A DNA stretch of 64,000 bases, taken from positions 248,001 to 312,000 of the forward strand of contig CM102287.1 in assembly GCA_046563655.1 (NCBI GenBank), written 5' to 3'. A model generated the notes under the pieces. It was not told where the DNA came from, made no database searches, and saw nothing but the letters and a program-made list of their open reading frames with translations. Positions 7,267-38,200 of the stretch are shown here, piece by piece. Made by a program: the position numbers and the translations under genes. This DNA comes from Yuukianura sp. NJ FZ-2021. Lineage: Eukaryota. Each line of letters opens with the position of its first letter. Positions within the stretch are counted from its first letter, which is position 1.

Positions 7267-7632
7267 TTGCGTACAGATCCAGTGACCTGGAGGTCACCAA
7301 AGGTCAACGAAGATAAACGTGAGCAAAAACTGTAAAAATTTTGTGTCAAAAAAGTGGTGTTTCATGCATTCAGAATATGGGAGTCGCTAACAGCGGCCTC
7401 CGTTTCACCAAGGGGAGTCACTGATAGTGGCCTCCGCTCATGTCAAAGGTCACGAATGACCAAGATTCAGTGTAATTTGTGCAGTTCCGAGATAAAGAAG
7501 TGATTAATCAGTACCATTTTGGTACCGAAAACGGATCTAGTTTTGCTGCGACAGAACATTTCATTCATTGTGTAGTTCGCCTCCGTGTGCGTGCTTAGTG
7601 ATTAAGTGCCGTCTCCTGCGGGTGATTGGGCC

Positions 7633-8436: not shown

Positions 8437-8519
8437 AGAAGGGGAATGACATTTCGTCCATCATTCACCCTAGTGTCAAGTTGTGTCCGGACGAAGTAGT
8501 TCAGTGTTGTGGTGTAAAT

Positions 8520-10043: not shown

Positions 10044-10378
10044 GTTATGCCAGTTAGGCCTTGGTGAGATGCGGCGGAGGAGTCGCGGTAGATTTGAGAT
10101 GCGGTGTGGGTTTAGAGAGAGAGGAGATTTAGTGTAGTAGAGTTTAGTCTTGGATTGGCTTTAGAGTGAGTTGGAGATCAGTAGTTATGATCATTCATTA
10201 TTCAGTTGTTCTTTGAGTTTATTTTATCGATTCAATAAATATACATCATATATTTATTCATCGATCGGTTGTTCATGCAGTGGTGATTGTTTGTGGTCAT
10301 TTGGGTCTGAGAGCCTGTTGGCTCAGAGAGTAGTCTGGTGGAGTATTTTTCAGTTGTTTAGCGTCGTAGGGCGTTACA
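10016..10378 (+). repeat. 3' LTR
   Basis: No differences from the 5' LTR seen by eye; followed by TSD AAAT. Confidence 0.95.
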
Positions 10379-13300: not shown

Positions 13301-14905
13301 GTGAATTTGCAGAGCAATTTTACCCCCTACAAAATTCTAGAAAAACTACCTTTTTAAATGTCCACCTTTGAAAGTATACTCACATCAATTTCAAGTCGGT
13401 GAATCCGAATTTGCAATCAGATTTCACCGGAAATCCATATTTCTCGAGATACAGCCATTTTGTGAATTTGCAGAGCAATTTAACCCCCTTCAAAATTCTA
13501 GAAAAACTACCTTTCTAAATACCCACCTTTGAAAGTGTACTCACATCAATTTCAAGTCGTTGAATCCGAATTTGCAATTAGATTTCACCGGAAATCCATA
13601 TTTCTTGAGATACAGCCATTTTGTGAATTTGCAGAGCAATTTAACCCCCTTCAAAATTCTAGAAAAACTACCTTTCTAAATACCCAACTTTGAAAGTGTA
13701 CTCACATCAATTTCAAGTCGGTGAATCCGATTTTTCAATTAGATTTCACCGGAAATCCATATTTCTCGAGATACAGCCATTTTGTGAATTTGCAGAGCAA
13801 TTTAACCCCCTTCAAAATTCTAGAAAAACTACCTTTCTAAATACCCACCTTTGAAAGTGTACTCACATCAATTTCAAGTCGGTGAATCCGAATTTGCAAT
13901 TAGATTTCACCGGAAATCCATATTTCTCGAGATACAGCCATTTTGTGAATTTGCAGAGCAATTTTACCCCCTACAAAATTCTAGAAAAACTACCTTTCTA
14001 AATACCCACCTTTGAAAGTGTACTCACATCAATTTCAAGTCGGTGAATCCAAATTCGCAATTAGATTTCACCGGAAATCCATATTTCTCGAGATACAGCC
14101 ATTTTGTGAATTTGCAGAGCAATTTAACCCTTTACAAAATTCTAGAAAAACTACCTTTCTAAATACCCAACTTTGAAAGTGTACTCACATCAATTTCAAG
14201 TCGGTGAATCCGAATTTGCAATTAGATTTCACCGGAAATCCATATTTCTCGAGATACAGCCATTTTGTGAATTTGCAGAGCAATTTTACCCCCTACAAAA
14301 TTCTAGAAAAACTACCTTTTTAAATGTCCACCTTTGAAAGTATACTCACATCAATTTCAAGTCGGTGAATCCGAATTTGCAATCAGATTTCACCGGAAAT
14401 CATATTTCTCGAGATACAGCCATTTTGTGAATTTGCAGAGCAATTTAACCCCCTTCAAAATTCTAGAAAAACTACCTTTCTAAATACCCACCTTTGAAAG
14501 TGTACTCACATCAATTTCAAGTCGGTGAATCCAAATTCGCAATTAGATTTCACCGGAAATCCATATTTCTCGAGATACAGCCATTTTGTGAATTTGCAGA
14601 GCAATTTAACCCCCTTCAAAATTCTAGAAAAACTACCTTTCTAAATACCCAACTTTGAAAGTGTACTCACATCAATTTCAAGTCGTTGAATCCGAATTTG
14701 CAATTAGATTTCACCGGAAATCCATATTTCTTGAGATACAGCCATTTTGTGAATTTGCAGAGCAATTTAACCCCCTTCAAAATTCTAGAAAAACTACCTT
14801 TCTAAATACCCAACTTTGAAAGTGTACTCACATCAATTTCAAGTCGGTGAATCCGAATTTGCAATTAGATTTCACCGGCAATCCATATTTCTCGAGATAC
14901 AGCCA

Positions 14906-20209: not shown

Positions 20210-20271
20210 TCTTAGTCATAATTCCTATTCCTATTCATATTCTATATGACGCCTAAGAAGTCCTAAAAACT

Positions 20272-22260
20272 GACGTTCGTCAGTTTTTAGGACTTTGCTC
20301 CTGGTATCGGCAGTTTGTCGACAAGTTTTCAGAGGTTAGTGAGCCCCTTAACAGGTTGTTGCATAAGGATGTCCCATTTGAGTGGTCAGATGCTCAGGAG
20401 TCCGCATTTTTAAAGCTCAGAGCAGCGATTTGTTCCGATAATTTAGTTTTGGCTTTTCCCGATTTTTCGAAAGAGTTCATCATCCGGACGGACGCGTCCA
20501 AGGTTGGTGTTTCTGCAGTCCTTGCCCAGGAAATCAATGGTTTTGAGAGACCAATAGCTTTTGCCAGTCGTTCCCTAAATAACGCAGAAAAGAACTACGG
20601 TTCCAGTGAAATTGAGTGTGTAGGTATTTTGTTTGCCCTTAAGAAATTCGAACATTACATTGACGGTCAGAGATTTCGCCTCGAGACAGACAATAAAGCT
20701 CTAGTTTGGTTAGACAAAATGAAAGATGTCAACAGTAAGTTTACCCGTTGGGCCCTTAGAATTCAGGATTTTCAGCCCATTATTACTCATTGTCCAGGGA
20801 AACTTAACGTTGTAGCAGACGCCTTGTCTAGAGCCCCAGTAGGAGAAAGTGAGGATGCAGAAGTTCATCGCGAAAATTTACATTTTCCACTAAATAGTTC
20901 TTCTCCCGCCATTTTTCTTTCACTCACAAGGAAAATTTCGTTAGATCAGCTCAAAGAGGAACAAAGTAAAGATTTAGAGGTCCAAGCGCTTTTAACTGAC
21001 ATGGGTAAAGATTTCGTAGTGCACGACGGAATCCTTTACCGATTAGGAAAGTACGCAGGGAAACTTCCTTTCATTCCTTCTTCTTTACGTTCCCAAGTTC
21101 TGAGTTATTTTCATGATCGTCCAGAGTCAGGTCACATGGGCTTCAGAAAGACCCTTTATCGCTTACTACGTCGAGTCTTCTGGTTTGGTATGCACGAAGA
21201 CATTTACAAATTCGTTACGTCCTGTGACATTTGTCAAAAGACTAAAAATCCCACTACGAAACCAGTAGGTGAGCTCCAAAGTGTTCAGACTAGAGGTCCA
21301 TGGGATATGTTAGCCCTTGATTTGATAGGCCCCCTTACGAAAACCCAACGCCAAAATACGTTTCTGTTAGTCGTGACAGACCATTTTACCAAATGGGTTG
21401 AGATTTTTCCCCTTAGAGAGGCTACGACTCCTCAGATTATTCAAAAGCTTGAGCAGGAAGTCTTTTGTCGTTTCGGTAGGCCTCGAGCGTTACTTAGCGA
21501 CAACGGTTCCCAATTTACTTCTGAGTTGTTTAAGAAACTTTGCAAAACTTGGCAGGTTAAGCTAAAATTCATTTCGACCTATCATCCTCAGGCGAACATT
21601 ACCGAGCGTGTCAATCGGAACGTCATAGCGATTCTTAGAGCCTATGTAGCAAGGAAACATTCAAAATGGGATGAGAATCTCCCGGAAGTTGCCATGGCAT
21701 TGCGTACTGCGATCAGCGATTCGACAGGTTTTAGCCCCTCTATGTTAAATTTCGGTCGTGAGCTTTCCACTCCCTTTGATTTGGCCTTAGACGATTCTCA
21801 GAGCGACGCATTTTCTGAGTGGACAGACTACCAATTGACCCTGATAGAGCGTCTCTCAAAAGTTTATCGATTAGCCAGGGAACATTTAGAAAAGTCGCAA
21901 GCCTCCCAGGCCAAGTACTACAATCAAAAACGTAGGTCAGACAGCTTTGAAGTTGGTGATTTAGTCCTTCTGCGCACTCACATACAGTCAGACAAGGCTA
22001 AAGGAATCATGAAGAAGTTTGCATTTAAGTGGGAAGGCCCTTATGTCATTTCGGAGAAGGTTACGCCCTTAGTTTACGGCCTAAAGTTGTTTGGTTCTGA
22101 GGAAAGTGCTGGTCGCCATAACATTGTCAATTTGAAAAGGTATTTTTCCCGCCCTTCAGAACCATTACCTGAGCCTATGACCTATGCTAAAGTCGTTAAG
22201 ACCAAGCCAGTACCTGTACAGAGTAGTTACCAGTTACGTAATCGTACAACAGGCATTTAA
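20272..22260 (+). CDS. pol: Pol C-terminal fragment: RT thumb/connection, RNase H, integrase
   Basis: DVRQFLGLCSWYR; TDASKVGVSAVL; ETDNKAL; NVVADALSR; HHCC (HD..GH..CDIC); LDLIGPL, SDNGSQFTS, YHPQANITER (DDE); WEGPY. Confidence 0.95.
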   Translation, partial: DVRQFLGLCSWYRQFVDKFSEVSEPLNRLLHKDVPFEWSDAQESAFLKLRAAICSDNLVLAFPDFSKEFIIRTDASKVGVSAVLAQEINGFERPIAFASRSLNNAEKNYGSSEIECVGILFALKKFEHYIDGQRFRLETDNKALVWLDKMKDVNSKFTRWALRIQDFQPIITHCPGKLNVVADALSRAPVGESEDAEVHRENLHFPLNSSSPAIFLSLTRKISLDQLKEEQSKDLEVQALLTDMGKDFVVHDGILYRLGKYAGKLPFIPSSLRSQVLSYFHDRPESGHMGFRKTLYRLLRRVFWFGMHEDIYKFVTSCDICQKTKNPTTKPVGELQSVQTRGPWDMLALDLIGPLTKTQRQNTFLLVVTDHFTKWVEIFPLREATTPQIIQKLEQEVFCRFGRPRALLSDNGSQFTSELFKKLCKTWQVKLKFISTYHPQANITERVNRNVIAILRAYVARKHSKWDENLPEVAMALRTAISDSTGFSPSMLNFGRELSTPFDLALDDSQSDAFSEWTDYQLTLIERLSKVYRLAREHLEKSQASQAKYYNQKRRSDSFEVGDLVLLRTHIQSDKAKGIMKKFAFKWEGPYVISEKVTPLVYGLKLFGSEESAGRHNIVNLKRYFSRPSEPLPEPMTYAKVVKTKPVPVQSSYQLRNRTTGI

Positions 22261-22290
22261 TTTTTCGTTCTGTTCTTTTGTTGGTTTAGC

Positions 22291-22899
22291 ATGTCTTCTC
22301 AGCGATCAGCCAGACCTAAACTTGATTTTCCTCAGTGGGACGGAGAGATCGTCACTGATTTCCTGAAGCGTTTGATCCCTAAGATAGAATCTGCTCTCCA
22401 GCGAAAGCCTACAGACTCTGAAATCGTTTACTATGCCAAGCGTAACTTGAATCCTGCGATTCTCGAAGCCATTCCTACCTCCTGGCATAAAACTGGCAGA
22501 GGCCTTACGACCTCCAAGCTCATGTACCTCGATTCTGTCCTGCGCGAGAAGTTCCCGCCTTCCATTTATTTTTGGAGTCGACCAAGGTCTCCGTCTCCTA
22601 AGTCTCCCGAGGAAAGGCTCCCGGACATTACAGTCACGGTCCAGTGTCAACCGGCTCCTCCGCTGCCTCCTCCACTTCCACCAGTTCCTCAGAATTTGCC
22701 TCCGCCGCCTCCTCCTCCGGCAAAACCATCTAAAACGAGCCAGTTTCCGCGTAGATGCGCTCCTACTCCTATTAAAAAAGAGCTACATTGCCTACGATGC
22801 GGTCAGCCCGGTCATCTTGCGTCGACGTGCAAAGCCCCGCGCAGAAACCAATTCAAAACGAACAAGAAAAGTAACCCTCGTTACGCAAAACCCACCTAA
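22291..22899 (+). CDS. Extra 3' ORF (202 aa): Gag-like N-terminus, proline-rich linker, CCHC knuckle
   Basis: Intact ATG-to-TAA frame 30 nt after the pol stop; PKLDFPQWDG start; poly-Pro; CLRCGQPGHLASTC. Confidence 0.75.
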   Translation: MSSQRSARPKLDFPQWDGEIVTDFLKRLIPKIESALQRKPTDSEIVYYAKRNLNPAILEAIPTSWHKTGRGLTTSKLMYLDSVLREKFPPSIYFWSRPRSPSPKSPEERLPDITVTVQCQPAPPLPPPLPPVPQNLPPPPPPPAKPSKTSQFPRRCAPTPIKKELHCLRCGQPGHLASTCKAPRRNQFKTNKKSNPRYAKPT

Positions 22900-23131: not shown

Positions 23132-23146
23132 AAAGCGGGGAGGGGG
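23132..23146 (+). promoter_or_regulatory. Polypurine tract
   Basis: AAAGCGGGGAGGGGG just upstream of the 3' LTR. Confidence 0.85.
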
Positions 23147-23149: not shown

Positions 23150-23727
23150 TGTGAGGATATGATCCTCAAATGTGTAATTAATTAGATAATTAAAAATATA
23201 AAATAGCTAAAATCTTAAAATAGTTAAAATAATTAAAATGTAGGGCCAATGCCCATAAGTGTTTCCCCCGTCTCCCGCCATCCCCAATTCAAAATCGGAG
23301 AAGAAGCAGAAGCAGAGGCAGCAGTTGCATCAGCCACTTCACTTCGACTCCGGATGCAGCAGCCTCAGCAGCAACAGCTCCCTCCTGCCACGCCGTGCTC
23401 GTCACCACCGTCTTCTTCTGCCTGACCAAGGGTCACGTAAGGTCACTGGACACTCTACGTCTCCTTGAGGCCAGGTAGTGGTCTCGGCCAGTTAGTGGTC
23501 AAAGGCCAGGTAGTGGCTTGTTCCCCTCCTTTCCCCCGGTATTTTTGGTTTAGGCCCTTAAGGCCCAGTATTGTTTGGTTTAGCCCGGATTGGGCTCTTG
23601 TTTGGTTTAGAGTTATGGCTACGATTCAATAAATCGTAGCACACAAATCGTTTTGGTATCGGTGTTTGTTTGTTCATTTATTTGAGGGCAGGCAAGGATC
23701 GGATATCCTTGTCTGTCATCCCTCATA
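23150..23727 (+). repeat. Gypsy 3' LTR (578 bp, TG...TA ends)
   Basis: Direct repeat of 26592-27185 but lacks a 17-bp internal duplication. Confidence 0.95.
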
Positions 23728-26591
23728 ATCCCCATAAAAAGTGCTACAGGAGCCCACTTTCACTTGCTGTGTCGTCCCTAATCTTGTTACTTTTCTTTAT
23801 GAAAACTTGTTTCCAAACAAATATTTCGAAAAACCTCCACGCGGAGCGATGCTGGGTGAAAACGAGTTACTTTTCTGAAATCCTCCTGAAAAGTACTACA
23901 GGAACCCAAGGATAATTGGCGTGGATAGATCGCCATTAAATCTGGTTAGAGCGTACTTAAGAGTCTGGATGAACCGCTCTGTCTCGGAGTTTATCTTGGG
24001 TTGGTAAACGGTACCCAGGGCAATGCCGAGCACCATTTTGTCGAAAACGACTTAAATTTCTGAGAATGAACATGCTAATGTGAGAATGAACAGAAAGTAA
24101 ATTACATTTTTGAAATCCTCATAAAAAGGGCTACAGGAACCCACTTTCACTTGCTGTGTCGTCCCTCATCTCGTTACTTTTCTTTATGAAAATTTGTTTC
24201 CAAACAAATATTTCGAAAAACCTCCACGCGGAGCGATGCCGGGTGAATATGAGTTACTTTTCTGAAATCCTCCTGAAAAGTACTACAGGAACCCAAGGAT
24301 AATTGGCGTGGATAGATCGCCATTAAATCTGGTTAGAGCGTACTTAAGAGTCTGGATGAACCGCTCTGCCTCGGAGTTTATCTTGGGTTGGTAAACGGTA
24401 CCCATGGCAATGCCGAGCACCATTTTGTCAAAAACGACTTAAATTTCTGAGAATGAACATGCTAATGTGAGAATGAACATAAAGTAAATTACATTTTTGA
24501 AATCTTCATAATATGTGCTACAGGAGCCCATTTTCACTTGCTGTGTCGTCTCTAATCTTGTTACTTTTATTTAGGAAAATTCATGTTTCACAACAAAAAT
24601 TCAAAAGAAATGCATTCAGGAACGATGCTAGGTAAAAGTCAACTACATCTTTGAAATCCTCATAAAAAGTGCTACAGGAGCCCACTTTCACTTGCTGTGT
24701 GGTCCCTAATCTTGTTACTTTTATTTATGAAAATTCATGTTTCAAAACAAAGAATTCAAAAGAAATGCATTCCGAAACGATGCTAGGTAAAAGTCAACTA
24801 CATTTTTGAAATCCTCATAAAAAGAGCTACAGAAGCCCACCTTCACTTGCTGTGTCCTCCCTCATCTTGTTACTTTTATTTATGAAAATCCATGTTTCAA
24901 AACAAAGAATTCAAAAGAAATGCATTCCGGAACGATGCTAGGTAACAGTCAACTACATTTTTGAAATCCTCATAAAAAGGGCTACAGGAACCCACTTTCA
25001 CTTGCTGTGTCGTCCCTCATCTCGTTACTTTTTTTATGAAAATTTGTTTCCAAACAAATATTTCGAAAAACCTCCACGCGGAGCGATGCCGGGTGAATAT
25101 GAGTTACTTTTCTGAAATCCTCCTGAAAAGTACTACAGGAACCCAAGGATAATTGGCGTGGATAGATCGCCATTAAATCTGGTTAGAGGTACTTAAAAGT
25201 CTGGATGAACCGCTCTGCCTCGGAGTTTATCTTGGGTTGGTAAACGGTACCCAGGGCAATGCCGAGCACCATTTTGTCGAAAACGACTTAAATTTCTGAG
25301 AATGAACATGCTAATGTGAGAATGAACAGAAAGTAAATTACATTTTTGAAATCCTCATAAAAAGGGCTACAGGAACCCACTTTCACTTGCTGTGTCGTCC
25401 CTCATCTCGTTACTTTTCTTTATGAAAATTTGTTTCCAAACAAATATTTCGAAAAACCTCCACGCGGAGCGATGCCGGGTGAATATGAGTTACTTTTCTG
25501 AAATCCTCCTGAAAAGTACTACAGGAACCCAAGGATAATTGGCGTGGATAGATCGCAATTAAATCTGGTTAGAGCGTACTTAAGAGTCTGGATGAACCGC
25601 TCTGCCTCGGAGTTTATCTTGGGTTGGTAAACGGTACCCATGGCAATGCCGAGCACCATTTTGTCAAAAACGACTTAAATTTCTGAGAATGAACATGCTA
25701 ATGTGAGAATGAACATAAAGTAAATTACATTTTTGAAATCTTCATAATATGTGCTACAGGAGCCCATTTTCACTTGCTGTGTCGTCCCTAATCTTGTTAC
25801 TTTTATTTAGGAAAATTCTTGTTTCAAAACAAAGAATTCAAAAGAAATGCATTCAGGAACGATGCTGGGTAAAAGTCAACTACAGCTTTGAAATCCTCAT
25901 AAAAAGTTCTACAGGAGCCCACTTTCACTTGCTGTGTGGTCCCTAATCTTGTTACTTTTATTTATGAAAATTCATGTTTCAAAACAAAGAATTCAAAAGA
26001 AATGCATTCCGAAACGATGCTAGGTAAAAGTCAACTACATTTTTGAAATCCTCATAAAAAGAGCTACAGAAGCCCACCTTCACTTGCTGTGTCCTCCCTC
26101 ATCTTGTTACTTTTATTTATGAAAATCCATGTTTCAAAACAAAGAATTCAAAAGAAATGCATTCCGGAACGATGCTAGGTAACAGTCAACTACATTTTTG
26201 AAATCCTCATAAAAAGGGCTACAGGAACCCACTTTCACTTGCTGTGTCGTCCCTCATCTCGTTACTTTTTTTATGAAAATTTGTTTCCAAACAAATATTT
26301 CGAAAAACCTCCACGCGGAGCGATGCCGGGTGAATATGAGTTACTTTTCTGAAATCCTCCTGAAAAGTACTACAGGAACCCAAGGATAATTGGCGTGGAT
26401 AGATCGCCATTAAATCTGGTTAGAGGTACTTAAAAGTCTGGATGAACCGCTCTGCCTCGGAGTTTATCTTGGGTTGGTAAACGGTACCCAGGGCAATGCC
26501 GAGCACCATTTTGTCGAAAACGACTTAAATTTGTGAGAATGAACATGTTAATGCGAGAATAAACAGAAAGTAAATTTCATTTTTGAAATCC
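23728..26591 (-). repeat. Satellite B block in inverted orientation, with an internal ~1237-bp duplication
   Basis: Reverse complement of satellite B; identical pseudo-ORFs at 24982 and 26219. Confidence 0.96.
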
Positions 26592-27185
26592 TGTGAGGAT
26601 ATGATCCTCAAATGTGTAATTAATTAGATAATTAAAAATATAAAATAGCTAAAATCTTAAAATAGTTAAAATAATTAAAATGTAGGGCCAATGCCCATAA
26701 GTGTTTCCCCCGTCTCCCGCCATCCCCAATTCAAAATCGGAGAAGAAGCAGAAGCAGAGGCAGCAGTTGCATCAGCCACTTCACTTCGACTCCGGATGCA
26801 GCAGCCTCAGCAGCAACAGCTCCCTCCTGCCACGCCGTGCTCGTCACCACCGTCTTCTTCTGCCTGACCAAGGGTCACGTAAGGTCACTGGACACTCTAC
26901 GTCTCCTTGAGGCCAGGTAGTGGTCTCGGCCAGTTAGTGGCCATGACCAGTTAGTGGTCAAAGGCCAGGTAGTGGCTTGTTCCCCTCCTTTCCCCGGTAT
27001 TTTTGGTTTAGGCCCTTAAGGCCCAGTATTGTTTGGTTTAGCCCGGATTGGGCTCTTGTTTGGTTTAGAGTTATGGCTACGATTCAATAAATCGTAGCGC
27101 ACAAATCGTTTTGGTATCGGTGTTTGTTTGTTCATTTATTTGAGGGCAGGCAAGGATCGGATATCCTTGTCTGTCATCCCTCATA
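26592..27185 (+). repeat. Gypsy 5' LTR (594 bp)
   Basis: TGTGAGG...CCTCATA; preceded by ATCC and followed by the PBS. Confidence 0.95.
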
Positions 27186-27187
27186 TC

Positions 27188-27198
27188 TGGTGCCGAAA
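27188..27198 (+). promoter_or_regulatory. Primer binding site TGGTGCCGAAA (tRNA-Phe type)
   Basis: Complementary to the ...TTTCGGCACCA 3' end of eukaryotic tRNA-Phe; 2 nt after the LTR. Confidence 0.85.
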
Positions 27199-27579
27199 GT
27201 AGCGTTGAACCGCCCCCTTCAGCTCTCCCATAACGTTAATCGATGATTAATCATGGATTAATCACCGATTCATGACATAATACCGACGAATTCGGTACAT
27301 TTCGGTGTTCATTCGGTTGAAAGCATGGCTCTGCATGCTATATAAGCAGAACAGCAATACGGTACGGTTTTGCACAGCAGTGCTGAGTGCACCGCTCTGC
27401 TTAACATTTTTCAAGTCGAGCGCGGTGCCGCACCCCAAATTAACAATTCGGATTTTTGCCTTGCAAATTCTTTTCACAGTTTAAATTCAAAACTTTTTCA
27501 AATTATGCCGCGTAAATCTAAACAAATCATCTAAAATTCATTTCTAAATGTCAGTTTTTGTTGTTTTATAGTTTCTTTC

Positions 27580-28812
27580 ATGGTAATTACTCGCAGCGCG
27601 AGTAGGGAACTACAGAAGTCTCAAGCAGAGGCTTCGCACACAGGACTACTTGTCCCTGCTGAACCGGAGCGGGCGAAAAGCGCACCCCCGTCTGTTCTTT
27701 TGATTTCCCCAGTAATTAACGAAAACAAATCCGATTCAGAGGAGGAATATTCGGATTCCCTCGCAATTATGGACCCCACGGATTCTAAAGACGTTGTAAT
27801 TGCTGACCTACGTCAAACTTTACAAGCGCAATTAGCGGCTATGCAAGCACAACAATTAACCGCCGCGCCAGTGGTTGCCGCGCCCCAGCCCAGTACCGCA
27901 CCCGCACTAGCTATCACACCACCTAACGCGCCCCAAGTTTTATTAGTGGAACAAGCAGCAGTGATTGCTATTCCTAAATATTCACAGCGCGTACCTATTT
28001 CCTGTTTCTTTAAAGACGCTGAAGATTACTTTGCACTTAAAAATCTAACTGAAGAAGGAAAATTGGTTCTAATTAGTCGAATGTTCCACAAAGATTCTGA
28101 CACTTTTCGATGGTGGTTGGATACGAAGGACAGTATCACAACCTTGGAAGATTTTAAAGTCGTTTTTCAAAATTATGAGGGAGTTGGTCAGTCAAAAGAC
28201 AAACTTCTTGCTGAATTATTTTCTCGAAAACAATTTTTTGCTGAATCATTTGAAACTTTTGCGTGGGACATTTCAAATTCCTACCGGAGAATCGATCCTC
28301 AGGTTTCCACAGAAACGATTAGGGACAGAATCATTAATTCGTGTATCCCAGAAATCTCTCTTTTGCTTAGATCTTCGCAAGCTACAGGGATAGCAGAGCT
28401 CATTTCACATGGTAAAGAGATTATAGGAGACTTGAATAGGACTAGGCGATTTGAGAATAAGCCCCTCCTTCGAGCGAAAACTTCCGATGATTTTTCTGAG
28501 TACAATCAAAGAATTAAAGAGAGAACGTCTGCAAGGTATCAGCCTAGGGCTTCTAACGATTCAGGATCTTCTAGTTCCAATGCACAGCGTCCTCCAGCTG
28601 CGTCAGGTTCAGTTCAGCCTAACAATTATGGTAAAGGTCGTCCACCCTCAGGAAATGAGAGTAAGCAGGGTATTTCAGGTCAGCCTCCACCCTCCAGAGA
28701 ATGGTCAATCGATCAGATTACGTGCTTCTACTGTAACCAGAAGGGTCACTACGCTCCACAATGTCCCAAAAAGCGAGGGAAAACAAATCAAGGTGGTTAC
28801 CCAAAAGCTTAA
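27580..28812 (+). CDS. gag: Gag polyprotein (410 aa)
   Basis: Retrotransposon capsid-like core (FRWW...FKVVF...RKQFFAESFETF); CFYCNQKGHYAPQC knuckle; position after the PBS. Confidence 0.92.
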   Translation: MVITRSASRELQKSQAEASHTGLLVPAEPERAKSAPPSVLLISPVINENKSDSEEEYSDSLAIMDPTDSKDVVIADLRQTLQAQLAAMQAQQLTAAPVVAAPQPSTAPALAITPPNAPQVLLVEQAAVIAIPKYSQRVPISCFFKDAEDYFALKNLTEEGKLVLISRMFHKDSDTFRWWLDTKDSITTLEDFKVVFQNYEGVGQSKDKLLAELFSRKQFFAESFETFAWDISNSYRRIDPQVSTETIRDRIINSCIPEISLLLRSSQATGIAELISHGKEIIGDLNRTRRFENKPLLRAKTSDDFSEYNQRIKERTSARYQPRASNDSGSSSSNAQRPPAASGSVQPNNYGKGRPPSGNESKQGISGQPPPSREWSIDQITCFYCNQKGHYAPQCPKKRGKTNQGGYPKA

Positions 28813-29396
28813 GGAGGAGTGACTCGCAGGAGAAGGTCGCTCTTCCGTCATTGTTTGATTCTCCAGTTTTCGTTCCTTTAACTTCCAGTACTCCTAACCC
28901 TCAGAAAGGTCAAATTCATCATGTTACTGGCGATGCAACCCAGCCCATTTTAAAGAATCAACGTTGTATCTTGGCACACATTTGTAACGATCAGGGTTTT
29001 TGGGGAAAAGGTTTTGTCACTTCGCTTTCCAAGGCATTTCGTGCTCCAGAAATGGAATGCAGAAAATTACGAGCCCCAATTCAGAGAGGTCATGTACAGT
29101 TTGTCCAAGTAGCCAAAGACATAGAAGTTGCCAACATGATTGCCCAAGGACACCCCAACGAGCCAGTCCCAATTGACTATGATGCTCTTCGTGTAGCTTT
29201 ACAAACTGTAGCCAAACGAGCCTTAGACACAAATTCAGTTGTTCACATGCCCAGAATCGGAGTAGGTCTTTCCAGAGGACGATGGAACATTATTTCCCAC
29301 ATTATTTGGTCTGAATTATGCATGAGGGGAATAGAAGTTGTTGTTTACACCCTGCCCCATCAAGTTCCCAGGGATCCAAACCCCCAAGGAAGGTAG
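28761..29396 (+). CDS. Macrodomain ORF (ADP-ribose binding/hydrolase, ALC1/SCO6735-like class) in the -1 frame relative to gag; domain about 28911-29354
   Basis: Motifs GDAT, AHICNDQGFWGKGF, VQFVQV, VANMIAQ, IDYDALRVAL, VHMPRIGVGLSRGRW, GIEVVVY. Confidence 0.88.
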   Translation: MSQKARENKSRWLPKSLRRSDSQEKVALPSLFDSPVFVPLTSSTPNPQKGQIHHVTGDATQPILKNQRCILAHICNDQGFWGKGFVTSLSKAFRAPEMECRKLRAPIQRGHVQFVQVAKDIEVANMIAQGHPNEPVPIDYDALRVALQTVAKRALDTNSVVHMPRIGVGLSRGRWNIISHIIWSELCMRGIEVVVYTLPHQVPRDPNPQGR

Positions 29397-29908
29397 GACG
29401 GGAGCCCCCTATCCTTCCACAATTAAATTTTTCTAAAGCAGCTCCCACCATAATGGTACGAATTCGGAATTCGGTGCATTCGGCCCACCTAGATTCTCTC
29501 TCCACCTACTCCCACATTTCCCTTTCCTTAGCAAATAAGTTGGGATTGGTTGTTACTAAGGATTGTAAAGTAACATTAACGATTGGTGACTCTAGTACGA
29601 TCAGTACTTTAGGTTCAGCTGATTTAAAATTCAAAATTTACAGCGACGAGTATATTCAAAGAGTACACGTACTCCAGTCTCCCCCTTTTCCATTAATTCT
29701 CGGACTTGACTTCATCAGGAACTATCATTTGGTTCCAGACTTTCATGACGGTACTTTTTCCATTAACGGGACAAAAACTAAAGGTAGATTGGAATACGAT
29801 TTTCACAATCGCGAGTACTTGTGCGCACTTCTTGGCCTCAGTGACGTACAGTCTCAGGAATTAAAGACCCTTACCGATAGTTTTCCTTCACTTTTCTCTT
29901 CTCAGTTA
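29381..29908 (+). CDS. pol: Pol N-terminus: aspartic protease, -1 frame relative to the macro ORF, interrupted at 29908
   Basis: AHLDSLSTYSHIS (atypical active site); LILGLDFI; the frame rejoins RT once the transposon is removed. Confidence 0.8.
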
Positions 29909-30149
29909 ATGTTCGTCTAAAAACGCAAGGCCCTTTGTTTATTCTCAAAATTGAATATTTTTGAATTGCTCGGCGCGGGTTGGGATGCGCATGCGCAAAA
30001 TCATGTATACACCAGCGCAATAGTCGGTTATTAGGTGTCATTTGACAAAAATCATTTCTTTGTCAGTTTTTTTTACCGTTTTCTGGTTCACTTTTTTCCT
30101 CGTAGTTAATTAATTCCACTTCTTAAGTTTAGTCGTGTTAATTAATACA

Positions 30150-32297
30150 ATGCCTAAAGCAAAGAGCAAAGAAGAGAAAGAATTAATCGAATCGACACAT
30201 AGAAAATTTACAGAAGAAAAATTGAAGATTCAAGAGAACGTTAGGTCGGGCAAGCTAGATCCAACAAGTTTACCTTTCCAATGGGTAAATGTTATCAAAA
30301 GGACATCAGCTACCCTAAACGTAAGTTCGCTGTTTGTGTTTGTTTGTCTGCGCCATTAATTAACAAGTTCATCCTACTTTTTCTAGGTTAGTGAGCAAAC
30401 TGTGAAGAGAATTATTCGGGAAATGAAAACTTCAGGCACGTTAGGCCAACCGTCCTTGAAAAGTACTGGAAGAAACAAGATTCAGATCGACAGCTTTACG
30501 GAAGGGGTTATTCGAAGGGCTGTCCTTGAGGCTTACAGCAAAAGAATTTATCCTACGCTGAGCTACCTTCACACTTACCTACAGGAGGATCCTAACTTTC
30601 CACGCATGTGCAAAGCGACTTTACATAACATTATGCGACGCCAACTCAAATTCAAGTTCGGGAAATTCAATGGCAGACCGGTCGCAATGGACAGGCCTGA
30701 CATAGCAGCTCATCGTGCCAAATACTTGAGACAAATGAAAAAGTACAGAAGACAAGGATACCATGTAACTTTATACTATTTAAACATACTTTTTTCGAAA
30801 AATTAATATCCGTGTTTTAATTACAACTACATTTGTATGCTTTGTTATCTTACAGATTTATTTTCAAGATGAATCGTGGGTAAATGAAGGACTGGGTGTT
30901 GAGAAAGGGTGGCACATTCCCGAGAAGGAAATTATTGGCATGGGTCACAGCCAACCACATCGTGATCCCTGGTTGCGGGGAATAGGGCACAGATTCCAGG
31001 AAGGGTTGTTAGGTAAGTTTGATATTGATTTGACTGAAGAGAACAGAATAGGGACTGCGGGGGACAGAGTGGGGACTGTGGGGAACAGAGTGGGGACTGC
31101 GGGGAACAGAGTAGGGACTGTGGGGAACAGAGTAGGGACTGTGGGGAACAGAGTGGGGACTGCGGGGAACAGAGTAGGGACTGTGGGGAACAGAGTGGGG
31201 ACTGTGGGGAACAGAGTAGGGACTGTGGGGAACAGAGTGGGGACTGTGGGGAACAGAGTAGGGACTGTGGGGAACAGAGTGGGGACTGCGGGGAACAGAG
31301 TAGGGACTGTGGGGAACAGAGTGGGGACTGTGGGGAACAGAGTAGGGACTGTGGGGAACAGAGTAGGGACTGTGGGGAACAGAGTAGGGACTGTGGGGAA
31401 CAGAGTGGGGACTTACAACTGGTGTTTACAATGTGTTTATTATTTTTTTGCAGGAGGGATCTCACCAAAACCAAGTGGAGCTGGCAAACGACTGATTCTT
31501 TTGGATATAGGTTCTGCTGATGGGTTTTTGGGAGTTGGTAAAGTGTTTCTGGGCAATAACAACTCATCTGATTATCACGGGGAAATAACCGCTGAACACT
31601 TTAACGCGTGGTTCCGAGACGTCGTCGCCATAATTCCAAACAAATCAGTTATAGTCCTTGACCAAGCGTCGTACCATCGCAAAGTTACGGAGGAGACCCG
31701 TAACCCAACTACTACTTACAGGAAAGCTGAACTTATCAATTGGCTGGAAAACAAGGGAGTTCCAATTCCGACTGACGAGGAATCGTTTTGGGACATGCGG
31801 GTTGTGGAACTTCTTGAGCTTGCCAAAAAGTTCCCGGTAGAACCTGTATTTGAAGCAGAAAAAATCATTTCCGATGCGATGGCTGTGGATCCCACCCGCG
31901 ATATCAAGTTACTTTGGCTTCCGGTGGCTCATTGCGAATTGAACCCTATCGAGCTGATGTGGGCTGCGATTAAAGGTAACGATTGACTTTTAATTTTTAT
32001 TTTAATTTTTATTTATTTTTTAATTTTAATTTTTTAGGTGCCGTTCGCAAGCGTAATGTCACTTTCAAGCTCAAGGACTTGCTGCCGCTTACAAAGGAAG
32101 TAATCGATTCCGACGAAATTGTTCAACTATGGCCTGCATGCTGTCGCCATGTGGAGGAACTGGAAGACATGATCATGGAGAAGGAAAAAATCGCTGAGGA
32201 GTTCATCAGGAACACCATTCAACCAATAATTATTGAACTTGGGAATGATTCCTCTGATTCGGATATCAGTGCCGATGATTTAGATTCGGATGATTAG
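30150..32297 (+). CDS. Spliced DDE transposase, about 495 aa; exons 30150-30320, 30387-30764, 30856-31012, 31454-31975, 32038-32297
   Basis: Four GT-AG introns with compatible phases; FQDESW, KRLILL, IVLDQASYH, LPVAHCELNPIELMW; 96 residues between the second D and E. Confidence 0.85.
31041..31413 (+). repeat. 21-bp G-rich minisatellite (about 18 copies) within transposase intron 3
   Basis: GGGGAACAGAGTRGGGACTGY in tandem. Confidence 0.95.
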
Positions 32298-32412
32298 TGG
32301 TTACAAATGATGTAGCGCAGATTGTTGTCAACATTTCAGTAACGTATGGCAACAAGTAAAAAATCAGCGAAAATTGGTGTAAACAAAGGGCCTTGCGTTT
32401 TTAGACAGACAT

Positions 32413-33152
32413 TAGACCTGACTGATTGGGTTAAGTGTGAGTTGACACCGTCTCCTGGACCCCCAATTGCTTCCAAGCCCTATCCCGTTAGTCCCTTTAA
32501 AAGACAATTGATTGCTGACAACATTTCTGAAATGCTAAAGTTAGGAGTCATTGTTCCCTCCGAATCTGAATGGGCTTCCCCTGTATATATGCATACCAAA
32601 GACAAAGGTGAATCTTGGAGATTTACCCTGGACTTGAGAAAAGTTAACGCGCGGCTTCCTCATGATCCATTTCCAATTCCTAGGTTAGATTATCTTTTCC
32701 ATAACTTAGGACAAGCTAAGTTTCTTTCTGTCATTGATTTAAAGAAAGGCTATTGGCAAGTAGCTCTAGATGAAAATAGTGCCAAATATACTGCTTTTAT
32801 TTGTCATGAAGGGAAGTTTCAGTTTACTCGAATGCCATTTGGTTTAAAGTCAGCCCCTTCTCTTTTTCAAAGGCTTGTAAATAAAGTTCTGGGCACAGCG
32901 AGAGGTCGCTTTGCTGATGGGTACATTGACTACATCATTGTATACTCCAACTCTTGGACAGAGCATTTAGAGCACTTAAAGTACGTTTTCGAACGTTTAA
33001 AATCTGCAGGTCTTACTGTAAATAAGGATAAATGTGAGTTTGGCAAAACTACATCAAAGTACTTAGGTTATATCATTTCTCCAAACGGAATTGAGCGTAA
33101 TCCGGAGAAAGTTTCGGCAGTTTCTGAGTTCCCCAGGCCAACGACGCCTAAA
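32413..33152 (+). pseudogene. pol: Reverse transcriptase domain of the gypsy pol (disrupted: YIDY instead of YxDD, truncated)
   Basis: SEWASP, WRFTLDLRKVN, DLKKGYWQV, TAF, MPFGLKSAPSLFQR, YIDYIIVYS, YLGYIIS. Confidence 0.93.
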
Positions 33153-33188
33153 CTTCCTATTCTATGTCATATAGTTTATTCTTCCTAA

Positions 33189-34239
33189 CATAATTGTTAG
33201 GCTGAACTGAACCTGACGCAGCTGGAGGACGCTGTGCATTGGAACTAGAAGATCCTGAATCGTTAGAAGCCCTAGGCTGATACCTTGCAGACGTTCTCTC
33301 TTTAATTCTTTGATTGTACTCAGAAAAATCATCGGAAGTTTTCGCTCGAAGGAGGGGCTTATTCTCAAATCGCCTAGTCCTATTCAAGTCTCCTATAATC
33401 TCTTTACCATGTGAAATGAGCTCTGCTATCCCTGTAGCTTGCGAAGATCTAAGCAAAAGAGAGATTTCTGGGATACACGAATTAATGATTCTGTCCCTAA
33501 TCGTTTCTGTGGAAACCTGAGGATCGATTCTCCGGTAGGAATTTGAAATGTCCCACGCAAAAGTTTCAAATGATTCAGCAAAAAATTGTTTTCGAGAAAA
33601 TAATTCAGCAAGAAGTTTGTCTTTTGACTGACCAACTCCCTCATAATTTTGAAAAACGACTTTAAAATCTTCCCAGGTTGTGATACTGTCCTTCGTATCC
33701 AACCACCATCGAAAAGTGTCAGAATCTTTGTGGAACATTCGACTAATTAGAACCAATTTTCCTTCTTCAGTTAGATTTTTAAGTGCAAAGTAATCTTCAG
33801 CGTCTTTAAAGAAACAGGAAATAGGTACGCGCTGTGAATATTTAGGAATAGCAATCACTGCTGCTTGTTCCACTAATAAAACTTGGGGCGCGTTAGGTGG
33901 TGTGATAGCTAGTGCGGGTGCGGTACTGGGCTGGGGCGCGGCAACCACTGGCGCGGCGGTTAATTGTTGTGCTTGCATAGCCGCTAATTGCGCTTGTAAA
34001 GTTTGACGTAGGTCAGCAATTACAACGTCTTTAGAATCCGTGGGGTCCATAATTGCGAGGGAATCCGAATATTCCTCCTCTGAATCGGATTTGTTTTCGT
34101 TAATTACTGGGGAAATCAAAAGAACAGACGGGGGTGCGCTTTTCGCCCGCTCCGGTTCAGCAGGGACAAGTAGTCCTGTGTGCGAAGCCTCTGCTTGAGA
34201 CTTCTGTAGTTCCCTACTCGCGCTGCGAGTAATTACCAT
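33189..34239 (-). pseudogene. gag: 3'-truncated gag lacking the zinc knuckle
   Basis: Identical to the 27580 gag up to QPNNY except for one L/W change. Confidence 0.93.
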
Positions 34240-35228
34240 GAAAGAAACTATAAAACAACAAAAACTGACATTTAGAAATGAATTTTAGATGATTTGTTTA
34301 GATTTACGCGGCATAATTTGAAAAAGTTTTGAATTTAAACTGTGAAAAGAATTTGCAAGGCAAAAATCCGAATTGTTAATTTGGGGTGCGGCACCGCGCT
34401 CGACTTGAAAAATGTTAAGCCGAGCGGTGCACTCAGCACTGCTGTGCAAAACCGTACCGTATTGCTGTTCTGCTTATATAGCATGCAGAGCCATGCTTTC
34501 AACCGAATGAACACCGAAATGTACCGAATTCGTCGGTATTATGTCATGAATCGGTGATTAATCCATGATTAATCATCGATTAACGTTATGGGAGAGCTGA
34601 AGGGGGCGGTTCAACGCTACTTTCGGCACCAGATATGAGGGATGACAGACAAGGATATCCGATCCTTGCCTGCCCTCAAATAAATGAACAAACAAACACC
34701 GATACCAAAACGATTTGTGTGCTACGATTTATTGAATCGTAGCCATAACTCTAAACCAAACAAGAGCCCAATCCGGGCTAAACCAAACAATACTGGGCCT
34801 TAAGGGCCTAAACCAAAAATACCGGGGGAAAGGAGGGGAACAAGCCACTACCTGGCCTTTGACCACTAACTGGTCATGGCCACTAACTGGCCGAGACCAC
34901 TACCTGGCCTCAAGGAGACGTAGAGTGTCCAGTGACCTTACGTGACCCTTGGTCAGGCAGAAGAAGACGGTGGTGACGAGCACGGCGTGGCAGGAGGGAG
35001 CTGTTGCTGCTGAGGCTGCTGCATCCGGAGTCGAAGTGAAGTGGCTGATGCAACTGCTGCCTCTGCTTCTGCTTCTTCTCCGATTTTGAATTGGGGATGG
35101 CGGGAGACGGGGGAAACACTTATGGGCATTGGCCCTACATTTTAATTATTTTAACTATTTTAAGATTTTAGCTATTTTATATTTTTAATTATCTAATTAA
35201 TTACACATTTGAGGATCATATCCTCACA
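33189..35228 (-). mobile_element. Inverted truncated copy of the gypsy element: 5' LTR (34634-35228), PBS, leader and most of gag
   Basis: Reverse complement of 26592-28630 with a few SNPs; same flank (GGAT at 35229-35232). Confidence 0.96.
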
Positions 35229-38200
35229 GGATTTCAAAAATGAAATTTACTTTCTGTTTATTCTCGCATTAACATGTTCATTCTCACAAATTTAAGTCGT
35301 TTTCGACAAAATGGTGCTCGGCATTGCCCTGGGTACCGTTTACCAACCCAAGATAAACTCCGAGGCAGAGCGGTTCATCCAGACTTTTAAGTACCTCTAA
35401 CCAGATTTAATGGCGATCTATCCACGCCAATTATCCTTGGGTTCCTGTAGTACTTTTCAGGAGGATTTCAGAAAAGTAACTCATATTCACCCGGCATCGC
35501 TCCGCGTGGAGGTTTTTCGAAATATTTGTTTGGAAACAAATTTTCATAAAAAAAGTAACGAGATGAGGGACGACACAGCAAGTGAAAGTGGGTTCCTGTA
35601 GCCCTTTTTATGAGGATTTCAAAAATGTAGTTGACTGTTACCTAGCATCGTTCCGGAATGCATTTCTTTTGAATTCTTTGTTTTGAAACATGGATTTTCA
35701 TAAATAAAAGTAACAAGATGAGGGAGGACACAGCAAGTGAAGGTGGGCTTCTGTAGCTCTTTTTATGAGGATTTCAAAAATGTAGTTGACTTTTACCTAG
35801 CATCGTTTCGGAATGCATTTCTTTTGAATTCTTTGTTTTGAAACATGAATTTTCATAAATAAAAGTAACAAGATTAGGGACCACACAGCAAGTGAAAGTG
35901 GGCTCCTGTAGAACTTTTTATGAGGATTTCAAAGCTGTAGTTGACTTTTACCCAGCATCGTTCCTGAATGCATTTCTTTTGAATTCTTTGTTTTGAAACA
36001 AGAATTTTCCTAAATAAAAGTAACAAGATTAGGGACGACACAGCAAGTGAAAATGGGCTCCTGTAGCACATATTATGAAGATTTCAAAAATGTAATTTAC
36101 TTTATGTTCATTCTCACATTAGCATGTTCATTCTCAGAAATTTAAGTCGTTTTTGACAAAATGGTGCTCGGCATTGCCATGGGTACCGTTTACCAACCCA
36201 AGATAAACTCCGAGGCAGAGCGGTTCATCCAGACTCTTAAGTACGCTCTAACCAGATTTAATGGCGATCTATCCACGCCAATTATCCTTGGGTTCCTGTA
36301 GTACTTTTCAGGAGGATTTCAGAAAAGTAACTCATATTCACCCGGCATCGCTCCGCGTGGAGGTTTTTCGAAATATTTGTTTGGAAACAAATTTTCATAA
36401 AAAAAAGTAACGAGATGAGGGACGACACAGCAAGTGAAAGTGGGTTCCTGTAGCCCTTTTTATGAGGATTTCAAAAATGTAGTTGACTTTTACCTAGCAT
36501 CGTTCCTGAATGCATTTCTTTTGAATTTTTGTTGTGAAACATGAATTTTCATAAATAAAGGTAACAAGATGTAGGACTACACAGCAAGTGAAAGTGGGCT
36601 CCTGTAGCACTTTTTATGAGGATTTCAAAGCTGTAGTTGACTTTTACCCAGCATCGTTCCGGAATGCATTTCTTTTGAATTCTTTGTTTTGAAACAAGAA
36701 TTTTCCTAAATAAAAGTAACAAGATTAGGGACGACACAGCAAGTGAAAGTGGGCTTCTGTAGCTCTTTTTATGAGGATTTCAAAAATGTAGTTGACTTTT
36801 ACCTAGCAACGTTTCGGAATGCATTTCTTTTGAATTCTTTGTTTTGAAACATGGATTTTCATAAATAAAAGTAACAAGATGAGGGAGGACACAGCAAGTG
36901 AAAGTGGGTTCCTGTAGCGCTTTTTATCAGGATTTCAAAGCTGTAGTTGACTTTTACCCAGCATCGTTCCTGAATGCATTTCTTTTGAATTTTTGTTGTG
37001 AAACATGAATTTTCATAAATAAAGGTAACAAGATGTAGGACTAAACAGCAAGTGAAAGTGGGCTCCTGTAGCACTTTTTATGAGGATTTCAAAGCTGTAG
37101 TTGACTTTTACCCAGCATCGTTCCGGAATGCATTTCTTTTGAATTCTTTGTTTTGAAACAAGAATTTTCCTAAATAAAAGTAACAAGATTAGGGACGACA
37201 CAGCAAGTGAAAATGGGCTCCTGTAGCACATATTATGAGGATTTCAAAAATGTAATTTACTTTCTGTTCATTCTCACATTAGCATGTTCATTCTCAGAAA
37301 TTTAAGTCGTTTTCAACAAAATGGTGCTCGGCATTGCCCTGGGTACCGTTTACCAACCCAAGATAAACTCCGAGGCAGAGCGGTTCATCCAGACTCTTAA
37401 GTACGCTCTAACCAGATTTAATGGCGATCTATCCACGCCAATTATCCTTGGGTTCCTGTAGTACTTTTCAGGAGGATTTCAGAAAAGTAACTCATATTCA
37501 CCCGGCATCGCTCCGCGTGGAGGTTTTTCGAAATATTTGTTTGGAAACAAATTTTCATAATAAAAGTAACAAGATGAGGGACGACACAGCAAGTGAAAGT
37601 GGGTTCCTGTAGCCCTTTTTATGAGGATTTCAAAAATGTAGTTGACTTTTACCTAGCATCGTTCCTGAATGCATTTCTTTTGAATTTTTGTTGTGAAACA
37701 TGAATTTTCATAAATAAAGGTAACAAGTTGTAGGACCACACAGCAAGTGAAAGTGGGCTCCTGTAGAACTTTTTATGAGGATTTCAAAGCTGTAGTTGAC
37801 TTTTACCCAGCATCGTTCCTGAATGCATTTCTTTTGAATTCTTTGTTTTGAAACAAGAATTTTCCTAAATAAAAGTAACAAGATTAGGGACGACACAGCA
37901 AGTGAAAATGGGCTCCTGTAGCACATATTATGAAGATTTCAAAAATGTAATTTACTTTATGTTCATTCTCACATTAGCATGTTCATTCTCAGAAATTTAA
38001 GTCGTTTTTGACAAAATGGTGCTCGGCATTGCCATGGGTACCGTTTACCAACCCAAGATAAACTCCGAGGCAGAGCGGTTCATCCAGACTCTTAAGTACG
38101 CTCTAACCAGATTTAATGGCGATCTATCCACGCCAATTATCCTTGGGTTCCTGTAGTACTTTTCAGGAGGATTTCAGAAAAGTAACTCATATTCACCCGG

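Follow-up and report, generated by a model that had tools for sequence, protein, structure and literature searches.

Macrodomains of the ALC1-like class include ALC1/CHD1L, TARG1 (OARD1/C6orf130), DarG and SCO6735 of Streptomyces coelicolor, an enzyme which, in the available text of PMC9411070, strips ADP-ribose from proteins and from thymidine in single-stranded DNA. The same text places SCO6735 Gln85 where TARG1 and DarG have their catalytic Lys (Lys84 and Lys80, respectively) and reports that Q85A is inactive, that Asn27 locks Gln85 with N27S being nearly inactive, that G128E reduces activity, Gly128 lying in the phosphate-binding loop, and that the backbone of Val25 is proposed to position the catalytic water. 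A lysine-bearing "mobile loop", 5 aa longer than in TARG1 and DarG, is given there as a characteristic of the subclass which aids DNA activity; mutation of Lys89 in this loop lowers DNA activity while activity on protein substrates goes up. SCO6735, TARG1 and DarG also strip ADP-ribose from uracil in PARP10-modified single-stranded RNA, according to the accessible part of PMC13036486, in which TARG1 and DarG, like SCO6735, act on ADP-ribosylated thymidine too. Here we describe a domain of this class found between gag and protease of a Ty3/gypsy retrotransposon in a 64,000-nucleotide (nt) stretch of Yuukianura sp. NJ FZ-2021 (assembly GCA_046563655.1, contig CM102287.1, positions 248,001–312,000 of the forward strand), which we call the window and whose own numbering is used throughout.

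Long terminal repeat (LTR) retrotransposons seldom fix extra enzyme domains. Betaretroviruses encode a dUTPase in the slot between nucleocapsid and protease, and ribosomes enter it through the first of two −1 frameshifts. The rotifer gypsy-like elements Juno, Vesta and TelKA carry a dUTPase between protease and reverse transcriptase (RT) (PMC5408684, accessible part), and orchid Ty3/gypsy elements have captured an AlkB N6-methyladenosine (m6A) RNA demethylase that is active in vitro, a capture which its authors, in the available text of PMC9289625, read as a sign of host surveillance of transposable elements. The rotifer dUTPase and the orchid demethylase may be regarded as earlier examples of LTR elements that carry an accessory enzyme for erasure or hygiene. 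Besides, some fish epsilon-like endogenous retroviruses are said, in a line of PMC4977317 citing Basta et al. 2009, to hold extra open reading frames with cellular genes including a macro domain.

The reading that we favour, with modest confidence, is that a Ty3/gypsy lineage has captured an SCO6735/Bt_1257-type macrodomain, placed after the nucleocapsid end of Gag and ahead of the protease with a −1 shift on either side, and uses it as a particle-borne counter-defence de-ADP-ribosylase. The parts of the element that bear on this reading directly are the following.

27580–28812, + strand: gag, inside the open frame 27535–28812, with a CCHC zinc knuckle in its last part (zf-CCHC, 5e-05)
28737–29396, + strand: macrodomain frame, stop to stop, 219 codons, −1 relative to gag; the folded domain covers about 28911–29345
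28800–28806, + strand: C CCA AAA, read in the gag frame, a candidate slippery heptamer for a −1 shift; 3 nt separate it from the stop codon of gag
28813–28846, + strand: hairpin of the first junction, 12 bp, 6 nt past the heptamer (−18.7 kcal/mol, z −3.9)
29375–29384, + strand: candidate second −1 shift site, either U CCA AAC (29375–29381) or A AAC CCC (29378–29384)
29388–29418, + strand: hairpin of the second junction, GGAAGG...CCUUCC, 6 nt past 29375–29381 (−13.5 kcal/mol, z −1.2)
29375–29908, + strand: protease part of the pol frame, −1 relative to the macrodomain frame (RVP_2, 3.5e-4), inside the open frame 29315–29920

In order to identify the domain, its protein was compared by phmmer with all chains of the PDB. 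The best matches were to the Bt_1257 structures of Bacteroides thetaiotaomicron (2afc, 3.5e-29; 2fg1, 7e-29) and to 5e3b (5.1e-29), an entry titled "Macrodomain protein" that corresponds to SCO6735 in the available text of PMC9411070, while the CHD1L macrodomain (6e-7) and C6orf130/TARG1 (4e-3) gave weaker matches. The match of the window frame to solved macrodomains is far above chance. A second round, run with a profile of eight element-type sequences, returned Bt_1257 at 2.4e-56 and SCO6735 at 6.2e-53, ahead of CHD1L (2.7e-21), TARG1 (1e-9) and DarG (2.6e-3), together with a weak match (3.7e-7) to the ADP-ribose 1''-phosphate phosphatase 6lfu. Similarity to the solved members of the ALC1-like class (Bt_1257, SCO6735, CHD1L, TARG1 and DarG) is significant and, judged by these matches, the domain is a member of the SCO6735/Bt_1257 branch of that class. 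An earlier interpretation made from the letters alone (the sequence-only reading) had called it an SCO6735-type macrodomain, and this holds: in the comparison with SCO6735, ALC1/CHD1L, TARG1 and DarG, the SCO6735/Bt_1257 branch is the best by far. The five motifs quoted at that stage, TGDATQP, HICNDQGFWGKGF, VQFVQV, VANMIAQ and HMPRIGVGLSRGRW, are all found in the translation of 28761–29396. PHROG 335, a family labelled "phosphatase", also matches the domain (4.6e-19). As for the three-layer alpha/beta/alpha macro fold, the ESM Atlas model of P0002, a homologue 64% identical to the window protein and not the window protein itself, reaches template modelling (TM) scores of 0.83–0.90 to macrodomain clusters, with 0.90 to bacterial macrodomain clusters and 0.87 to CHD1L.

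The domain keeps the residues on which SCO6735 depends. In the phmmer alignment VANMIAQ of the window aligns to VANMIGQ of 5e3b, and this, with the residue assignments in the available text of PMC9411070, confirms the earlier statement that a Gln occupies the position of the TARG1/DarG Lys. We aligned 217 domain rows (13 element-type and 204 others), in which the equivalents of Gln85 and Asn27 are each present in 13/13 element-type rows and in 216/217 rows overall, and that of Gly128 in 13/13 and 214/217. The Val25 column has Ile in the window and is mixed overall (I 98, V 97, C 14, S 3, M 2, L 2), although the role proposed for this residue is that of its backbone, so that the side chain says little. 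We infer from the conserved catalytic residues that the element macrodomain is an active ADP-ribosylhydrolase. The description of the window domain as intact stands in part: its frame is open throughout, but a Cys is found at a column which holds Tyr in 198/217 and Phe in 15/217 rows, the window copy being alone among the 217 in this respect, and the copy itself is dead.

We then considered variation and selection. Contigs from four public runs were aligned on the window, and differences in gag, the macrodomain and the protease were each scored in their own reading frame. Runs with two different organism labels show the family at high copy number, with the macrodomain part covered by contigs without gaps. 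Five of the six differences listed in this part are synonymous in the macrodomain frame and all six are non-synonymous in both other frames; this 5:1 count is a sample, because the differences listed are the best supported 41 of 529. The sole non-synonymous one is at the Cys/Tyr column. Concomitantly, 10/13 listed differences in gag and 3/6 in the protease are synonymous in their own frames. At a larger distance, the comparison of the window macrodomain with those of two metagenome contigs, L001 and L003, shows saturated synonymous sites (proportion of synonymous differences, pS, 0.75–0.78), the proportion of non-synonymous differences (pN) being 0.28–0.42. Neutral evolution, which the sequence-only reading had named as an outcome that would speak against it, is not borne out, the domain being conserved in diverged relatives and variation being mostly synonymous; by these measures the macrodomain is not neutral.

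The arrangement of frames places the macrodomain inside the Gag-Pol precursor. Codon starts modulo 3 are 1 for gag, 0 for the macrodomain and 2 for the protease, the macrodomain being in the −1 frame relative to gag and the protease in the −1 frame relative to the macrodomain, and protease and RT share a frame when a Tc1-like insert between them is discounted. The macrodomain frame overlaps both the end of gag (28812) and the start of the protease frame (29315). Pol is reachable only through the macrodomain frame, because gag has already ended at 28812 when pol first becomes open at 29315. The domain had earlier been given an open reading frame of its own between gag and protease; a separate frame does lie in that position, but it is a trans-frame part of Gag-Pol. 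We also examined a start at ATG 28761, which was rejected as improbable, the differences at 28791 and 28794 being synonymous in gag and non-synonymous in the macrodomain frame. Since these two differences upstream of 28800 are silent in the gag frame and not in the macrodomain frame, entry by a −1 shift at 28800–28806 is most likely.

Candidate shift signals occur at the same place in three elements, namely the window element and those of L001 and L003. At the first junction the heptamers are of the canonical X XXY YYZ form (C CCA AAA in the window and L001, G GGA AAA in L003), and the hairpin that follows, at −16.8 to −18.7 kcal/mol, has 12 pairs conserved in the three elements, two of them compensatory. 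The hairpin of the second junction has nine conserved pairs, one of them compensatory. The pol frame of L001 opens only 16 nt before the macrodomain stop, so that its second shift must fall within these 16 nt, which hold G GAA AAA; the second junction of L003 has G GAA AAC. The spacer between heptamer and hairpin measures 6 nt at both junctions in 3/3 elements, within the 5–9 nt expected of a programmed −1 shift signal. These signals point to two successive programmed −1 frameshifts at the junctions.

The same layout is seen beyond the window. We scanned JGI metagenome contigs and examined the best 80 of 523 confirmed relatives, among which L001 (63% macrodomain identity) and L003 (48%) are the nearest with flanks; both have the order gag(CCHC)/−1/macrodomain/−1/protease, and their gag ends are 36% and 35% identical to the window gag (1e-21 and 7e-16, respectively). 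In the protein P0073, gag and macrodomain are fused in one 568-aa frame with a stop after the macrodomain, the gag part being 41% identical to the window gag over 329 aa (2e-66). P0220 and gag proteins of Orchesella dallaii share 34–36% identity with the window gag, and the only named relatives of the gag family are two proteins of this springtail (34% identity), which makes a springtail or some other arthropod of the soil the probable host of the lineage. A search for longer proteins with the domain returned no polyprotein; what it did return was an ImmA fusion from a bacterium and a truncated Exo_endo_phos protein. Joints that skip the macrodomain part are seen in one sequencing run only (X1), at 28376 to 29376 and at 28672 to 29388, each in a single contig and with sides of 24–27 nt; the second joint would place gag and protease in one frame. 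We rejected these joints as macro-less relatives, each being a single contig with such short sides and possibly false.

To place the domain, an exhaustive HMMER search was run, which yielded 3342 representatives at E ≤ 1e-3 and 11 at E ≤ 1e-30, and unrooted trees were built with FastTree (217 rows) and IQ-TREE (67 rows, and 111 rows of which 99 come from bacterial genomes or IMG/VR viral contigs). All 11 element-type rows of the 67-row tree fall on one side of a branch with a support of 93 in the SH-like approximate likelihood ratio test (SH-aLRT), and in the 111-row tree they form one clade (support 84) nested among bacteria; in both IQ-TREE runs this clade lies among named bacterial and phage rows. 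FastTree recovered the gag-linked clade with the gag-less rows elsewhere, the element-type rows being split in two. The sister of the element-type clade is unstable (P0004 in the 67-row tree versus a metagenome-assembled genome of Pyrinomonadaceae in the 111-row tree). Named bacterial genomes from many phyla hold relatives with up to 50% identity to the macrodomain, and a scan of IMG/VR found 57 phage-like loci at 29–47% identity, none of which has an element-type macrodomain. The nearest eukaryotic cellular relative found is CHD1L, which is far more distant. The horizontal origin suspected earlier fits the nesting of the element-type clade among bacterial and phage rows. The trees are consistent with a single transfer from a bacterium or phage. 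We name no donor, because the IQ-TREE backbones are weak (41/64 forks open in the 67-row tree and 47/104 in the 111-row tree) and the trees are unrooted. Many of the homologues found by HMMER are fused to bacterial conflict or ADP-ribose domains: P0062, P0063, P0097, P0105, P0109, P0187 and P0214, which are probably bacterial, carry fusions to an ImmA peptidase, an Exo_endo_phos nuclease, DUF4291, NADAR, an ADP-ribosylglycohydrolase, GNAT or RNase H. Such fusions suggest conflict or repair systems.

A different route is possible, though we regard it as doubtful: the element may have taken the domain from a host gene that had itself been acquired earlier from bacteria, or stand-alone eukaryote-type genes may derive from the element. 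Two gag-less sequences inside the element-type clade point in this direction. L002 has two tandem element-type macrodomain frames (229–804 and 866–1423) with no gag visible in its short flanks and a ratio of non-synonymous to synonymous substitution rates (dN/dS) of 0.37 between them, and may have been domesticated or amplified independently; P0076 has no gag, and its macrodomain carries a basic tail at the N terminus. Springtail genomes, moreover, have been reported, in a partly accessible source, to be rich in genes of microbial origin. Yet the flanks of L002 are short and P0076 is known from the protein alone, and the gag-less rows of either IQ-TREE run sit inside the gag-linked ones and not outside them, at forks that are weak (81–86).

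With regard to function, the favoured reading, that of a captured de-ADP-ribosylase, would work as follows. The two −1 frameshifts would yield Gag, Gag-Macro and Gag-Macro-Pol in falling amounts. Because it is carried on Gag-Macro and Gag-Macro-Pol, the macrodomain is expected in the particle, a location predicted from reading frames only; it would be built into every particle, where the protease may release it. There it would hydrolyse ADP-ribose added by host ADP-ribosyltransferases to the proteins of the element, its RNA or the bases of its complementary DNA (cDNA), and this removal would be a counter-defence in the manner of RNA-virus macrodomains. The RNA genome and cDNA of a retroelement are conceivable substrates, since SCO6735, TARG1 and DarG act on uracil in single-stranded RNA. 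More tentatively, ADP-ribosylation of retroelement RNA, cDNA or Gag-Pol may be an arthropod genome defence, which this lineage would escape by having a de-ADP-ribosylase of bacterial or phage descent in every particle.

Several findings weigh against the favoured reading. The Pfam Macro model PF01661 gave no match to the window protein at E ≤ 0.01, and no NCBIfam or PADLOC family matched the macrodomain; PF01661 is carried by 1/60 relatives searched, and a further set gave hits below threshold, so this model misses most of the group. The mobile loop, measured from the Gln to the conserved Tyr, has exactly 10 residues in 13/13 element-type rows, as compared with 13 residues in 114, 14 in 40 and 11 or fewer in 12 of the 204 other rows, and it contains 0–2 Lys/Arg versus a mean of 2.4 in the others, being rich instead in proline and acidic residues; aligned to 5e3b and 2afc, the window loop shows gaps of 3 and 4 residues, respectively. 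The long lysine-bearing loop that marks the SCO6735 subclass is hence lacking in the element-type domains, and because the loop is shortened and lysine-poor, substrate choice may differ from that of SCO6735. On these alignments the domain has split off from the SCO6735/Bt_1257 branch, whose chemistry it keeps but whose structural hallmark it has lost. At the second junction, the sites (U CCA AAC, G GAA AAA and G GAA AAC) are non-canonical heptamers in 3/3 elements, and the hairpins, at −9.8 to −13.5 kcal/mol, are weak in two of the three (z −1.2 and −1.0). The covariation in the hairpins comes from three sequences, and the 5:1 count of synonymous changes carries the limit of its sampling. The window copy is dead through a Tc1-like insertion, truncation of RT and an inverted duplication. 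Finally, we know of no arthropod host ADP-ribosyltransferase acting on retroelements.

There are two other accounts of what the domain does, both of which we judge unlikely. One is that it is a reader and not an eraser, which would bind ADP-ribose or poly(ADP-ribose) like ALC1/CHD1L and would steer integration by holding Gag-Pol or the integration complex at PARylated chromatin or at DNA breaks. A DNA-clamping loop that is short and without lysines suits such a role, as does the position of the element in satellite DNA, and CHD1L is the second-best solved family, both in the single-sequence and profile searches and for the P0002 model. However, the similarity to Bt_1257/SCO6735 is more than 30 orders of magnitude better than that to CHD1L, and the three residues needed for SCO6735 activity, as given in the available text of PMC9411070, are kept in all 13 element-type sequences; hydrolysis and binding can, besides, coexist. 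The other account, to which we give a similarly low weight, has the domain act on small molecules or metabolism (O-acetyl-ADP-ribose, ADP-ribose-1''-phosphate) or on host proteins generally, changing the state of the cell in favour of the element. Bacterial relatives do bear the name "O-acetyl-ADP-ribose deacetylase", which, like the "phosphatase" label of PHROG 335, is an automatic annotation in its source; the weak match to 6lfu and the improved protein-substrate activity of SCO6735 upon loss of Lys89 (PMC9411070, available text) agree with it as well, but a tether to Gag-Pol puts the enzyme in the particle and not free in the cell.

It is scarcely credible that the domain came in by chimeric assembly or by contamination from bacteria, or that it is carried as a neutral passenger: the copy is dead, the satellite region around it is rearranged and contains a near-perfect inverted duplication, and Pfam makes no call for the domain, but the same layout occurs in three independent records and as an in-frame fusion in a fourth, the macrodomain frame overlaps gag and protease, the family is high-copy under two organism labels, synonymous changes predominate, and active-site residues are kept after synonymous saturation, a conservation by which the neutral reading is contradicted.

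The remaining parts of the element and its surroundings are listed below.

20257–22260, + strand: RNase H and integrase (RT_RNaseH, 1.7e-33; Integrase_H2C2, 5.7e-20; rve, 1.8e-14), the 3' half, of the same family
22261–22899, + strand: extra 3' frame, 212 aa, proline-rich, with a CCHC knuckle at its end
23132–23146, + strand: polypurine tract AAAGCGGGGAGGGGG
23150–23727, + strand: 3' LTR
26592–27185, + strand: 5' LTR, starting TGTGAGG and ending CCCTCATA, about 99% identical to 23150–23727 apart from a 16-nt indel
27188–27199, + strand: putative primer-binding site TGGTGCCGAAAG, 2 nt past the 5' LTR
29909–32412, + strand: Tc1/mariner-type DNA transposon in pol, with 35-nt terminal inverted repeats (94%), a TA duplication and a DDE_3 transposase
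32415–33153, + strand: RT (RVT_1, 1.9e-34), in the same frame as the protease once the insert is discounted; homology ends at 33153
33186–36490, − strand: inverted duplicate of 25330–28633 (satellite, 5' LTR and most of gag), with arms 99–100% complementary and gag 99.7% over 350 aa

The nearest PDB structures of the RT are those of Ty3 RT (4ol8, 2.6e-43; 7q5b, 2.3e-42), ahead of the RTs of caulimovirus, foamy virus and murine leukaemia virus, and because its RT is closest to that of Ty3 we assign the element to Ty3/gypsy, as had been proposed from the letters. LTRs, primer-binding site, polypurine tract and a zinc-knuckle gag are all present, and the order protease, RT, RNase H, integrase is assembled from two halves. 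The primer-binding site presumably matches the 3' end of tRNA-Phe; no tRNA genes were found within the window. The extra 3' frame matched no Pfam family, and its CCHC knuckle resembles retroviral nucleocapsid chains (PDB 2bl6, 1.4e-4). The active-site stretch of the protease reads HLDSLST where D-S/T-G is expected, and the YxDD box of RT reads YIDY.

Other copies are without the Tc1-like insert, as seen from a contig joint of 29908 to 32421; the transposase frame of the insert contains an in-frame 21-bp tandem repeat of about 18 units (31041–31413, GTVGNRV repeats). The 3' half begins (..VRQFLGL, at about 20275) exactly where the 5' half stops at 33153, and ATCC stands directly upstream of the 5' LTR and directly downstream of the 3' LTR, inside the same satellite motif. 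The two halves seem to belong to a single insertion which, along with 2.9 kb of satellite, was permuted or amplified at a later time. Between the RT break and the inverted duplicate stand about 32 nt of different sequence (33154–33185). The 3.3-kb inverted duplication may be genuine, having arisen by fold-back, or may stem from the assembly.

Satellite DNA, into which elements have inserted, makes up the window from end to end, with a 161/482-bp array at 1–14908 and a 155/309/387-bp array elsewhere, the latter being flipped in orientation at 23727–26295. Rfam gave no matches within the window, which is probably pericentromeric heterochromatin. A stretch richer in G+C inside the 161-bp satellite (7606–10043) has two long open frames of 276 and 543 aa; neither has a Pfam match, and the 543-aa frame has no PDB match either.

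Extra domains fixed by LTR elements, such as dUTPase and AlkB, point to host pressure on the nucleic acids of the element. Most work on the ADP-ribosylation of nucleic acids has up to now dealt with bacteria, phages and mammalian PARPs. A conserved SCO6735-type eraser placed obligatorily in Gag-Pol would make anti-retroelement ADP-ribosylation in animals, of proteins or of nucleic-acid bases, testable and, if the defence proposed above is real, it would be the retrotransposon counterpart of the conflict between viral Mac1 and PARPs and possibly of that between phages and DarT. The element would also offer a clear example of a mobile element bringing a gene of bacterial type into an animal genome, and of a three-frame gag/X/pol layout outside retroviruses, with two predicted −1 shifts. 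In a full-text search, to which subscription journals, Repbase reports and supplements are external, we found no description of a macrodomain in gypsy elements, and the available text of two reviews on ADP-ribosyl hydrolases (PMC8120803 and PMC7050489) leaves macrodomains of retroelements unmentioned. Captured accessory enzymes in LTR retrotransposons are thus already known, while for an SCO6735-type macrodomain in a gypsy Gag-Pol we found no description, an earlier one being possible.

Compared with SCO6735 (5E3B) and Bt_1257 (2FG1/2AFC), the element shares the single domain of about 150 aa with its Gln, Asn and Gly, but the domain lies inside the Gag-Pol of a eukaryotic retrotransposon, at 45–50% identity, and its loop is 3–4 residues shorter, acidic, proline-rich and without the lysines. 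The similarity to ALC1, TARG1 and DarG is much weaker: the catalytic Lys of TARG1, paired there with an Asp, and of DarG is absent, with Gln in its place, the element has no Snf2 ATPase such as that of ALC1, and no frame for a DarT-like toxin, the partner of DarG, is present in it.

The macrodomains of RNA viruses (coronavirus Mac1, alphavirus nsP3, hepatitis E and rubella) are, as reported in partly accessible sources, likewise polyprotein domains held to reverse antiviral ADP-ribosylation, but they sit in replicase polyproteins. None of them was among the PDB matches of the window protein or of the element-type profile. They are of the MacroD-like kind. The fish epsilon-like endogenous retroviruses resemble the element as retroelements with a coding region for a macro domain and differ as vertebrate Retroviridae, a comparison that goes back to the citing line mentioned above. 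With the orchid AlkB elements the likeness is that of a gypsy lineage fixing an eraser of nucleic-acid modification; they differ, in the available text of PMC9289625, in their plant host, in a domain derived from a host AlkBH5-like gene and in its location in a separate ORF2 outside Gag-Pol. The dUTPases of retroviruses and of some LTR retrotransposons are comparable as accessory enzymes of nucleic-acid hygiene in a Gag-Pol precursor. As against the betaretroviral dUTPase, fold and chemistry are others, and here the middle frame holds the macrodomain alone, with the protease in the pol frame.

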